From the UHGV virus genome UHGV-0390443: a DNA stretch of 39,252 bases; one strand, given 5' to 3'. Below, one piece after another: positions 6,861-37,990 of this stretch. Each line of letters opens with the position of its first letter. Position 1 is the first letter of the stretch. The notes under the pieces were generated by a model. It was not told the origin of the DNA. It searched no databases and was given only the letters and a program-made list of their open reading frames with translations. This stretch comes from a virus. The position numbers and the translations under genes were made by a program.

Positions 6861-6896
6861 GACGGTATGAGAGTATACCTTTAAGGTAATACCGTC
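6861..6896. promoter_or_regulatory. Int-proximal nested palindrome GACGGTAT...ATACCTTTAAGGTAA...ATACCGTC (contains an operator-family site at 6875..6889)
   Basis: 8-bp inverted repeat 6861..6868 / 6889..6896 enclosing a dyad site; immediately upstream of int start. Confidence 0.4.
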
Positions 6897-11908: not shown

Positions 11909-11923
11909 TTACCTTTCGGGTGA
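11909..11923. promoter_or_regulatory. Operator-like dyad TTACCTTTCGGGTGA (imperfect)
   Basis: Family consensus match; upstream of LexA box and small antirepressor-like gene. Confidence 0.4.
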
Positions 11924-12257: not shown

Positions 12258-12289
12258 GGTTTGCAATTACCAAGTGGAGTGCTTATATT

Positions 12290-12304
12290 TACCTTTGCGG
12301 TAAA
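12290..12304. promoter_or_regulatory. Operator TTACCTTTGCGGTAA
   Basis: Perfect family dyad, extended palindrome ATTTACC...GGTAAAT. Confidence 0.55.
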
Positions 12305-12570
12305 TTTACATCGCACTCCTCTTGTGCCATAGTAATCAGGCACTGGCAAAATCCAGTGCCGGGATTGGTCTCCCGGATTACTACAGAGGCACATATGCCG
12401 CATAAGCGGTTTTTTTATGTGTAAAGCGCACCTATTCTATGGTGGGCTGTGTGGGGGCACCGAAAGGTGCGCCGGGTTCCTTTGTAGCCGGTAAGACCAA
12501 CTCTGCACAGTTCACCACCATCTGATTGGTCTCAGCGGTGGTGATTAACCTAACTACAAAGGTGATCGCC

Positions 12571-13329: not shown

Positions 13330-13344
13330 TTACCTTAAAGGTAA
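13330..13344. promoter_or_regulatory. Operator TTACCTTAAAGGTAA overlapping a putative promoter (-10-like TAATAT 13325..13330)
   Basis: Perfect dyad 27 bp upstream of ATG 13371. Confidence 0.55.
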
Positions 13345-30868: not shown

Positions 30869-30905
30869 TTGACATTTAACGCACAAATTATTACCTTTCA
30901 GGTAA
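30869..30905 (+). promoter_or_regulatory. Putative promoter (TTGACA 30869..30874) with operator TTACCTTTCAGGTAA (30891..30905), facing tRNA and gp49-like gene
   Basis: -35 hexamer; dyad overlaps expected -10 position at 17-bp spacing. Confidence 0.5.
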
Positions 30906-31227
30906 GCAAAGGGTTCATTCCGGTTATTAACCTGACTGGCTTGTCGTTAAATTGAACAGGTGGAGTGAGCTTTTATTTTGAGCAGTACGGCGTATGGCAC
31001 ATGCGCCGATAGCGGTCTGGATACGTTTAAGGGGCACCCTCCCTTGCTCGGGCAAACGAACCAGGTAGCCGGAATGTGCAAGTCGAGCGGTTTTATTCCG
31101 CGCACGGGGATTCACCATCCCGGCGATTCGGTGTGACGCCTCGGAAGAGACGAGGGTACAACGATGAGAGCATTTATGGAGCCGCGACAAAGTGTGGCGC
31201 CTTAACAGGCTAAGTGCTCTCAGCGTT

Positions 31228-31304
31228 GTGGCATTAGCTCAGTTGGACAGAGCAACCGCCTTCTAAGCGGTTGGTCGCAGGTTCGAATCCTGCATGCCAC
31301 GCCA
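31228..31304 (+). tRNA. tRNA-Arg (anticodon UCU), with encoded CCA
   Basis: Manually folded cloverleaf: acceptor GTGGCAT/ATGCCAC, D-stem GCTC/GAGC, anticodon stem ACCGC/GCGGT with loop CTTCTAA, T-stem GCAGG/CCTGC with TTCGAAT loop. Confidence 0.85.
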
Positions 31305-31347
31305 GAATCACGCCTAAGGACCGTGATGCCAGAAGTTCCAGGTGCTT

Positions 31348-31390
31348 GGCGGTGATAGTTTCCCTTGAAGGACTATCACCGCCCTTTTTA
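31348..31390 (+). terminator. Strong rho-independent terminator after tRNA
   Basis: 12-bp stem GGCGGTGATAGT/ACTATCACCGCC followed by CTTTTTAC. Confidence 0.75.
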
Positions 31391-31467
31391 CAGCAGGACG
31401 CCATTGCGATGACTTCATGCTGTAAACCCGTACAGCCACGGAAGGCATAACTCATTGCTTCCAGTTC

Positions 31468-31491
31468 GCCCGGTTCGCCGGGCATTTTTTT
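31468..31491 (+). terminator. Second rho-independent terminator upstream of gp49-like gene
   Basis: GCCCGG-TTCG-CCGGGC followed by ATTTTTTT. Confidence 0.7.
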
Positions 31492-31502: not shown

Positions 31503-31877
31503 ATGAACGACCAGCAAATCGAAAAAGAAATCGTTGAGAAAGGCAAAACGGCACCGCGCGTAACACCTGAGAAAATTGAAGGCCTCATTTGCAGTGAGCA
31601 TTTTTTCACTGCTGCGCAGGGTGATCACCAGGCTAAAGAAGATGACCTTATTTATAATCCGGAGCCTTATGTCGAAGCCACCCCTGATGCTCTGCACCTT
31701 CTCACTTTCTGCGTACTGGTGCTGAAGAATGGCTTCACCGTCACCGGAGAGAGTTCCTGTGCAAGTCCGGAAAATTTTGATGCAGAAATTGGTCGGAAGA
31801 TTGCCCGGCAGAATGCTGTAAACAAAATCTGGATGCTCGAAGGTTACTTGCTGAAGCAGAAGTTAAGCGAGCAATAA
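31503..31877 (+). CDS. N4 gp49 / Sf6 gp66-family phage protein (moron between terminase and portal)
   Basis: 124 aa; RBS AAGGTGAG; family assignment from remembered similarity, unverified. Confidence 0.6.
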   Translation: MNDQQIEKEIVEKGKTAPRVTPEKIEGLICSEHFFTAAQGDHQAKEDDLIYNPEPYVEATPDALHLLTFCVLVLKNGFTVTGESSCASPENFDAEIGRKIARQNAVNKIWMLEGYLLKQKLSEQ

Positions 31878-31895: not shown

Positions 31896-31925
31896 ACAGC
31901 CAGCCTATGAGCTGGCTTTGTTTTA
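31896..31925 (+). terminator. Rho-independent terminator after gp49-like gene
   Basis: Stem AGCCAGC/GCTGGCT followed by TTGTTTTAT. Confidence 0.65.
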
Positions 31926-34036: not shown

Positions 34037-34077
34037 AACCACCGTGGTAATAGTTACCGTTGTGGTAATAGTACCAT

Positions 34078-37913: not shown

Positions 37914-37990
37914 TTACCTCTGAGGTAATTAAAAACCACATAAGACACGAAATCAATAGATTTTAGAATATTTTATTACCTAACAGGTAA
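37914..37990. promoter_or_regulatory. Two operators TTACCTCTGAGGTAA (37914..37928, overlapping the RBS of 37566..37910) and TTACCTAACAGGTAA (37976..37990)
   Basis: Perfect dyads in the P-like/DUF1064 intergenic region. Confidence 0.55.

Follow-up and report, generated by a model that had tools for sequence, protein, structure and literature searches.

An apparently undescribed structured RNA in the leader of a phage tRNA-Arg transcription unit and in early operons of temperate enterobacterial phages

Why should a phage tRNA gene be preceded by some 320 nucleotides (nt) of GC-rich sequence between its promoter and its first base? The question arises in UHGV virus genome UHGV-0390443, a stretch of 39,252 nt that was analyzed whole and is called the window here. 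In BLAST searches, the 731 bases around the tRNA unit are 99% identical to phiV10, to the O157 typing phages 9 and 10, and to TL-2011b and also match several hundred E. coli prophages, and the window was therefore classed as a phiV10/epsilon15-like (Uetakevirus) temperate podophage. The interval from the promoter to the second terminator (30869 to 31491), exactly the one delimited in a preliminary description of the sequence, is one conserved, multimodule leader and transcription unit. Its modules follow in the order of a pseudoknotted core of ~180 nt, a helix (P6) with a variable tip, a slot that holds the tRNA, a small hairpin, two intrinsic terminators (T1 and T2), and a cargo gene (Table 1). 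The core is apparently an undescribed, widespread structured RNA of temperate enterobacterial phages. We describe below the evidence for this RNA, its distribution, the modules that follow it, and what it may do.

A conserved structured RNA ahead of the tRNA

The core is a genuine structured RNA on the plus strand. Its structure was derived on a MAFFT alignment of 27 representatives (A2), in which 89.9% of the cells at paired positions were paired, compared to 81.6% in shuffles, and the covariation score was 0.268, compared to 0.119 in shuffles and 0.025 to 0.075 in slid controls. A second alignment (A5) of 58 distinct sequences was made with covariance model R1, from which the pseudoknot was left out. 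In A5, 96.6% of cells were paired (87.9% in shuffles), both sides changed in 13 pairs (130 cells), and the covariation score was 0.288 (0.128 in shuffles), a value reached by none of 500 shuffles, with slid controls at or below 0.078. Compensatory changes are found in four helices and in the pseudoknot, where C:G is replaced by A:U in the cdtI group, and near-invariant conserved G.U pairs identify the plus strand as the RNA strand. Stems that vary in sequence and length are joined by invariant blocks of 7 to 19 nt (AUGGCACAUG, AGCGGUC, GGUAGCCGGAAUGUGCAAG, GGCG, and GGAAG), and those that separate the variable stems of the core are 17 to 19 nt long. The GC content of the leader is 0.59 versus 0.48 for the window. 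The preliminary description had left the segment as a possible leader or small RNA and asked for conserved structure, which these covariation-supported helices and the pseudoknot now provide. A further helix, P3 (GUGC/GCAC), had been drawn on the MAFFT alignment and was dropped as unsupported, with 30 to 46% of its cells paired and no counterpart in the cdtI and phage P1 groups.

The same data bear on whether the segment encodes protein. The preliminary description saw no convincing open reading frame (ORF) in the leader and placed the one listed there (30927 to 31190, 87 amino acids [aa]) on the opposite strand. A small protein made from this minus-strand ORF and conserved at the protein level is effectively refuted. 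The frame is open over the core in 88 of 135 loci, and a hypothetical protein is annotated there in mEp460 and a few other records. Yet there is no third-position bias (38/60, 38/60, and 35/60), core lengths run from 154 to 186 nt with differences that are not multiples of 3, and stops interrupt the minus frames of phage P1 and of loci L021, L048, L097, and L131. The compensatory changes and G.U pairs fit a plus-strand RNA only, and the RefSeq PGAP annotation has no gene at this place. The minus-strand ORF was rejected on periodicity, indel lengths, and stops, and the leader is noncoding, as had been supposed.

No existing family or annotation covers the core. Rfam 15 gave no match in 30906 to 31227 even at E values up to 10, no family over the element in 16 other loci, and none in cdtI at E values up to 5; the Rfam matches in the window are the tRNA and, elsewhere, C4 and isrK. 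Absence from Rfam is no proof that the element is undescribed, because Rfam also lacks a model for put, phage HK022's antiterminator RNA. RefSeq has no feature and no coding sequence between the 68-aa gene and the tRNA, and none of the records inspected annotates the core. In the literature, string searches with the invariant sequences returned nothing relevant, and no description of the element was found in the literature on phiV10/epsilon15 tRNAs and antiterminator RNAs, the put-like RNAs of King et al. (2011) being uncompared.

Transcription of the unit would begin, with a predicted start near 30904, from the promoter that the preliminary description had proposed, with a −10 hexamer overlapped by an operator dyad. 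TTGACA and TACCTT, 17 nt apart, make 9 of 12 hexamer matches in a relaxed scan; in a standard, stricter scan this promoter fell below the threshold because the −10 fits just three of six bases. At least nine other families (L006, L010, L014, L049, L073, L080, L090, L109, and L129) have the identical TTGACA-17-TACCTT arrangement ahead of the element. A perfect copy of the operator motif lies at 30891 to 30905, and the 15-bp motif itself, TTACCTnnnAGGTAA, occurs 14 times in the window with up to two mismatches, versus 0.83 expected. Copies flank a helix-turn-helix repressor-like ORF (1149 to 1733). The reading as an operator is well founded because of this excess and because the copies bracket a repressor-like gene. 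The repressor, probably the HTH_3 product of ORF 1149 to 1733, would control many scattered promoters, as C1 does in P1.

The dyad copies are dispersed across the whole genome. One of them (12289 to 12303) stands just upstream of an isrK Hfq-binding RNA (74.7 bits) that is directly followed by a C4 antisense RNA (78.6 bits) at 12340 to 12522 on the plus strand. This region looks like a P1/P7-type secondary immunity module, for antirepressor control, in a phiV10-like phage; cdtI has the same isrK/C4 pair (L002, 777 to 965).

Distribution and genomic settings of the core

The core is found far beyond phiV10-like phages. By BLAST, window positions 30987 to 31234 are 80 to 84% identical to the lambdoid phages cdtI, mEp460, 2H10, and Ayreon and to Stx2a- and Stx2c-converting phages, and ~165 nt of the leader are 77 to 81% identical to P1, P7, D6, SJ46, RCS47, and ~590 phage-plasmids. 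Copies that are more diverged are carried by Salmonella phages SPN1S and PAT1, Enterobacter phage Tyrion, Klebsiella phages, SopranoGao, mEp390, and a phage whose recorded host is Stenotrophomonas. The element is present in 1,082 of 5,426 complete E. coli genomes, about one-fifth. An exact-word scan of IMG/VR gave at least 120 loci, and among the matches listed at least 107 cores are distinct, forming 39 clusters with less than 90% identity. A second word, searched in one genome per species and filtered with the covariance model, gave 29 matches, 23 of them true copies (22 in Enterobacterales and 1 on a short contig binned to a Bacillota metagenome-assembled genome). The six remaining matches, in other phyla, were rejected by R1 as chance.

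Some loci hold more or less than one complete core. Two cores lie ~800 nt apart on the same strand in L032 (4799 to 4961 and 3992 to 4156, both minus), and two or three occur in different prophages of single genomes of Phytobacter ursingii (L143, L165, and L166) and Citrobacter braakii (L147 and L160). Epsilon15 (L005, 2547 to 2654) retains no more than the 5′ third of the core (helix P1 and a portion of P2), at 40 bits with R1, and no tRNA; its GenBank record places a putative RNase III processing site there, on the other strand and close to repressor and IHF sites.

The order in cdtI is the cI stop codon, an intrinsic terminator, a PL promoter (TTGACA-16-CATAAT) with OR-like operators, and the core ~45 nt past the predicted start. 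By this layout, the element forms the 5′ leader of the early-left transcript, where lambda has nutL and HK022 has putL. The distance from PL to the core is also about 45 nt in mEp460 and in Stx2a/2c phages. Most of the 39 listed families have an upstream terminator and then a TTGAC(A/C) promoter 10 to 130 nt ahead of the core. The core of phage P1 belongs to the ban operon, which C1 controls, and has trnI on one side and ban on the other; in P1 ban and in L075 it continues directly into the ribosome-binding site and start codon. T1 and T2 are conserved between the core and the first gene in phiV10-like, Klebsiella, Salmonella, and cdtI-type leaders. The cargo genes include those of the Gp49 family, ban, DUF2303/YfbR-like early-left genes, and xis-int. 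The core is a distinct RNA family that opens repressor-controlled early operons of unrelated enterobacterial temperate phages. One claim of the preliminary description fails here, namely that the 320-nt segment is the leader of the tRNA: the core is an independent mobile RNA, and most of its copies have no adjoining tRNA.

Because an invariant RNA comes first in repressor-controlled operons, before terminators and with unrelated cargo, we favor a role in cis, with a confidence that falls somewhat short of even: the core would let RNA polymerase read through downstream terminators and so control elongation of the early transcript. That the cargo genes are unrelated argues for a generic role at the level of transcription. 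The core could, less probably, be a trans-acting, stable early RNA that would be the first product of early transcription, be set free through cleavage by RNase P, III, or E or through termination at T1, and then bind or sequester a host or phage factor, either a protein or a second RNA. We consider this unlikely, even though the promoter-RNA-terminator layout is like that of an RNA gene and the tRNA abuts P6, such that an RNase P cut would define the 3′ end of the core RNA. The P1 operon is also rich in RNA genes (a dicF-like region and three tRNAs), the long invariant single-stranded blocks would suit a binding surface, and some genomes carry two or three copies. In several contexts, however, the RNA has no end after the core and runs into mRNA (P1 ban and L075), no target complementarity was identified, and a trans-acting RNA has no need of a near-constant place behind an early promoter.

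The slot, its tRNA, and the terminators

The tRNA itself is as first described. ARAGORN calls it at 31228 to 31304 with the anticodon TCT in the canonical position, the Rfam scan matches RF00005 at 73.3 bits (E = 2e−14; gathering score, 29), and the RefSeq annotation of identical E. coli prophages includes this tRNA. It is encoded on the plus strand, opposite to the surrounding genes (the 68-aa ORF, portal, and terminase on the minus strand), also as stated earlier. AGA makes up 7.7 per 1,000 codons in the long ORFs of the phage and 12.6% of their Arg codons. E. coli uses AGA at ~2 per 1,000 codons. With a usage several-fold above this average, a phage-borne AGA decoder makes sense. Taken alone, the tRNA is an already known, ordinary phage AGA decoder such as many phages have.

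Between core and slot, P6 is present downstream of P5 in most copies, with inserts of 34 to 242 nt and compensatory variants (GAGAGCA/UGCUCUC, AAGAGCA/UGCUCUU, and AAAAGAGC/GCUCUUUU). In the window, G1 of the tRNA is the last G of P6. The 3′ strand of P6 is boxA-like: UGCUCUC, UGCUCUUU, or a near variant is found in 57 of 103 distinct loci as this base-paired strand, the boxA consensus being UGCUCUUUAACAA or CGCUCUUA. A perfect, free boxA is found only in L094, which lacks P6; there, 110 nt past the invariant junction, a small hairpin is followed by the rrn-type sequence TGCTCTTTAACAA.

What fills the slot differs among loci. Those without a tRNA have a bracketed tRNA-like module, GUUGUGGUG-AAU-hairpin-variable-hairpin-CACCACAAC-CCA, which in L003, L006, L007, L011, L015, L041, and others lies just 3′ of P6 and reads GUUGUGGUG-AAU-GCGCAGGCUGAUGCGC-variable-GCCGGAGAUCAGCACCGGC-CACCACAAC-CCA. 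With its acceptor-like 9-bp stem and 3′ CCA it resembles an RNase P substrate. The tRNA is an interchangeable insert, one of several alternatives for the slot. The slot of Phytobacter prophages holds an odd 79-nt tRNA that ARAGORN reads as Ile with the anticodon AAU, unusual for bacteria (L143, 2210 to 2288, minus strand; L166, 1186 to 1264, plus strand). Fragments of a tRNA T arm and acceptor lie within the P6 inserts of SPN1S, 1720a-02, L105, and L109. Tandem units of a GGAAGAG-type hairpin, a P6-like helix, and a bracket occur 3′ of the core in mEp390 (L013, 2090 to 2560) and after the bracket in SopranoGao (L011), and by such examples the leader may be an array of hairpin-P6-bracket units.

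These inserts suggest another role, in which the leader is a scaffold for RNA cassettes: P6 and the GUUGUGGUG/CACCACAAC bracket would present variable inserts, such as tRNAs, tRNA-like modules, and further small RNAs, to RNase P, III, or E, and the core would aid folding or protect the 5′ end. The variety of the slot (tRNA-Arg(UCU), the Phytobacter tRNA, or the CCA-ending module), the P6 loops with tRNA fragments, and the tandem units of mEp390 and SopranoGao all fit such a scaffold. We nevertheless hold it to be distinctly improbable, since P1, L075, and L094 have the core with no cassette, its invariant junctions and pseudoknot exceed what a stabilizer needs, and tRNAs elsewhere manage without a scaffold of this kind.

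The two strong terminators reported after the tRNA were both found. The T1 stem shows compensatory changes and is conserved in Klebsiella, Salmonella, and lambdoid copies; that of T2 (31468 to 31483) has 6 bp, all GC, is followed in DNA by ATTTTTTT, and is kept directly upstream of the downstream gene in many loci. Leaders of the cdtI type have T1 and a second terminator-like hairpin ahead of the first gene. The terminators are more than stops for the tRNA, because in lambdoid phages they lie between PL and the early-left genes. Further on, a terminator-like hairpin (31898 to 31917) may shield the inserted unit from the late operon, which has to cross it on the other strand.

A leader with terminators downstream also invites comparison with riboswitches, in which case the core would be a ligand- or protein-sensing aptamer and the leader an attenuator that settles if early transcription ends at T1 and T2 and so links the development of the phage to host conditions. 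With its pseudoknot, invariant nucleotides in the junctions, and peripheral stems that vary, the core is built like a riboswitch, the 5′ leader position is apt, and GUUG is common to the 3′ strand of P6 and the 5′ strand of the bracket, so that the two helices could compete through alternative pairings. We regard sensing as very improbable all the same. The core is aptamer-like, yet the terminators are distant, 150 to 500 nt from it, with a whole tRNA between and no overlap; the cargo is unrelated, with no metabolic theme; and no Rfam riboswitch matches even at E values up to 10.

Table 1. Features of the leader unit, its neighbors, and the operator copies in the window
Feature	Position	Strand	Basis or remark
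Promoter: −35 TTGACA (30869-30874), 17-nt spacer, −10 TACCTT (30892-30897)	30869..30897	+	Read from sequence
Repressor operator dyad TTACCTttcAGGTAA, overlapping the −10; perfect motif copy	30891..30905	.	Motif count
5′ spacer of transcript, weak hairpin at 30920-30939	30906..30983	+	Partly conserved with epsilon15, Tyrion, PAT1
Conserved core RNA	30984..31163	+	Covariance model R1, 150.6 bits
Helix P1	30988-30996 / 31000-31008	+	
Helix P2, variable extension	31016-31020 / 31061-31065	+	
Invariant junction UAGCCGGAAUGUGCAAG	31066-31082	+	
Helix P4	31107-31110 / 31118-31121	+	
Pseudoknot, CACC in P4 loop with GGUG	31113-31116 / 31130-31133	+	
Helix P5, loop GAAGAGA	31139-31143 / 31151-31155	+	
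Helix P6, 14 bp, CAACGAUGAGAGCA / UGCUCUCAGCGUUG, 42-nt variable insert	31159-31172 / 31215-31228	+	Compensatory variants
tRNA-Arg, anticodon UCU, CCA encoded, fills leader slot	31228..31304	+	ARAGORN, Rfam, RefSeq
Post-slot hairpin AUCACGCCUAAGGACCGUGAU	31307..31327	+	Kept in tRNA-containing and tRNA-free loci
Terminator T1: 14-bp stem (31348-31383) GGCGGUGAUAG.../...CUAUCACCGCC, then CUUUUU	31348..31389	+	
Conserved inter-terminator segment CAGCAGGACGCCAUUGCGAUGAC...GCUGUAAACCC	31391..31429	+	phiV10-, SPN1S-, and Klebsiella-type loci
Terminator T2: GCCCGGuucgCCGGGC, then AUUUUUUU	31468..31491	+	Terminator scan
Downstream cargo gene, N4 Gp49 / Sf6 gp66 family	31503..31877	+	Pfam PF13876, E = 1e−33; RefSeq, Gp49 family protein
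Terminator-like hairpin	31898-31917		Between Gp49-family gene (+) and converging terminase gene (-)
Terminase		-	RefSeq
68-aa hypothetical protein, counterpart of epsilon15 gp3		-	RefSeq
Portal protein		-	RefSeq
Other dyad copies	694-708, 870-884, 1031-1045, 1079-1093, 1791-1805, 1853-1867, 6875-6889, 11909-11923, 12289-12303, 13330-13344, 34054-34068, 37914-37928, 37976-37990		

Possible control of early transcription and comparison with known systems

We return to the reading that we favor, in which the core acts in cis on early transcription. A repressor-controlled early promoter would drive the unit, and the core would act on the very polymerase that has just made it, by itself or with the help of host Nus factors and the boxA-like sequence of P6. 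Such a polymerase would pass T1, T2, and the terminators beyond them, or withstand Rho along an extended untranslated RNA, and in this way get to the cargo genes, a task that put RNA performs in HK022 and N/nut in lambda. The tRNA would be a passenger, cut from the early transcript by RNase P and 3′ processing, that supplies a decoder for the heavily used AGA codon. No N-type antiterminator was found by Pfam among the first four early-left proteins of cdtI (no match, DUF2303, YfbR-like, and DUF551), a search by Pfam alone that a divergent N could escape, and the only gene of the unit in the window is that of the Gp49 family. According to a 2025 survey (PMC12315714), an N homolog is absent from related lambdoid phages, for which a put-like mechanism is guessed.

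Several observations weigh against this role. About 11 of 37 families have no terminator within 700 nt downstream. An RNAfold-based scan, itself crude, gave 1.68 terminators per 700 nt downstream of the core, versus 0.95 upstream and 1.43 antisense; with a scan so crude and a result that was not clean, terminator enrichment was set aside as evidence. The core of phage P1 is 2.3 kb from its promoter and hence not promoter-proximal. In the window, a polymerase that ignored terminators would continue, antisense, into terL, the gene for terminase. The boxA-like strand of P6 is ill suited to binding NusB/S10 because it is base-paired, and homology to put was tested and not found.

A bolder form of the proposal, which we put forward as possible and somewhat doubtful, is that the core represents a new class of antiterminator that modifies RNA polymerase independently of any protein. 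An RNA of this class would be over twice as large as put, contain a pseudoknot, and have no relation, or only a very remote one, to put; it would govern early expression in a large number of enterobacterial temperate phages, among them Stx2-converting phages, P1-type phage-plasmids, and the phiV10/epsilon15 group, and its leader would also take in tRNA and tRNA-like cassettes. If the core does control read-through, it would explain early-left expression in many lambdoid phages that lack N, a question left open in the 2025 survey (PMC12315714). It would also be a second, structurally distinct RNA that reprograms RNA polymerase by itself, beside the well-studied put of HK022, and a regulatory element would have been identified in Stx2-converting phages and in the P1 ban operon. 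Should the mechanism prove different, a covariation-supported, pseudoknotted RNA that about one-fifth of complete E. coli genomes carry merits a family entry even so.

Known phage and bacterial leaders share parts of this organization. GOLLD and ROOL are large noncoding RNAs of phages and prophages that often adjoin tRNA genes. Like the element, they are structured phage RNAs beside tRNAs; unlike it, they are ~600 to 800 nt long, come from other bacterial phyla, and are not known to be linked to early promoters, and Rfam searches gave no sequence or model match between them and the element. The C4 RNA of P1/P7 and the CI RNA of P4 are immunity RNAs processed by RNase P from leader transcripts, with tRNA-like ends. 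They too are small RNAs carved from phage leaders, and a C4/isrK pair is present elsewhere in the window, but they are antisense regulators of 77 to 90 nt with targets in their own operon, and their Rfam families do not match the leader.

In Stx phages, the tRNA genes ileZ, argN, and argO lie between PR′/tR′ and stx in an antiterminated leader. The likeness extends to tRNAs for rare codons (readers of AGA and AGG) in an untranslated leader with terminators, ahead of cargo. Read-through there depends on Q and serves the late operon, whereas the unit described here belongs to an early operon and has no evident protein factor. Lambda nut sites and rrn leaders are, like the element leader, promoter-proximal leader RNAs, and the long untranslated transcript is a further likeness to rrn and tRNA operons. 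The boxA-like UGCUCU(C/U) of P6, with a perfect rrn boxA at that place in one locus, recalls both systems, and the GAAGAGA loop of P5 is reminiscent of GAAGA, the boxB loop of lambda nutL. The differences are that Pfam detected no N-type protein downstream of the core, that the boxA-like strand is paired, and that nut and rrn have no pseudoknotted core.

The closest comparison is with putL and putR of HK022 and the "putL-like antiterminator RNA" of HK639. These, like the core, are noncoding and lie just past a repressor-controlled early promoter with terminators further on. The location agrees in cdtI, with its core ~45 nt past the predicted PL start, and in the window, where the core follows the operator-overlapped promoter and T1 and T2 lie downstream. 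HK022 and HK639, like the N-less lambdoid phages that have the core, are phages without an N protein, and HK639 has a single site in the left operon, as do the phages described here. The HK639 record (L137, 37910 to 37969) also lists an "M3-like RNA" after cII besides the putL-like RNA, neither of them in Rfam 15.

Reciprocal searches separate the two RNAs. R1 has no match in HK639 or in the early region of HK022. The put model R2 finds putL (104 bits), the HK639 putL (88), and putR (43), on which it was not trained, and none of 18 element loci at E values up to 10. Pairwise alignment of the element with put reached a z score of at most 1.8 against shuffles, which is not significant. The core may thus work like put, but it is no demonstrable member of the put family; of put, which has a stem I with the triplex and CAUG bulge and a stem II with GGAUGA...CAAUG, just a part of stem I is resembled by the helix P1 hairpin. 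That hairpin (A-CGGCG...CAUG-CGYCG) is like the C10-G14/C30-G34 helix of put with its CAUG bulge, and the invariant CGGAAUGUGC of the core resembles CGGCAAUGCUGC of put. In put, the C26-G29 (CAUG) bulge contacts the β′ zinc-binding domain (PMC9378689). The resemblance of P1 to stem I was noticed post hoc, with an exact CGUCG match in part of the family, and is kept as a lead only; the critical G35 of put has no counterpart in the core. The two also differ in build: put is an RNA of ~70 nt with two stems and a triplex, whereas the core has 155 to 185 nt, five helices, and a pseudoknot, and comes with P6, a slot, and terminators.

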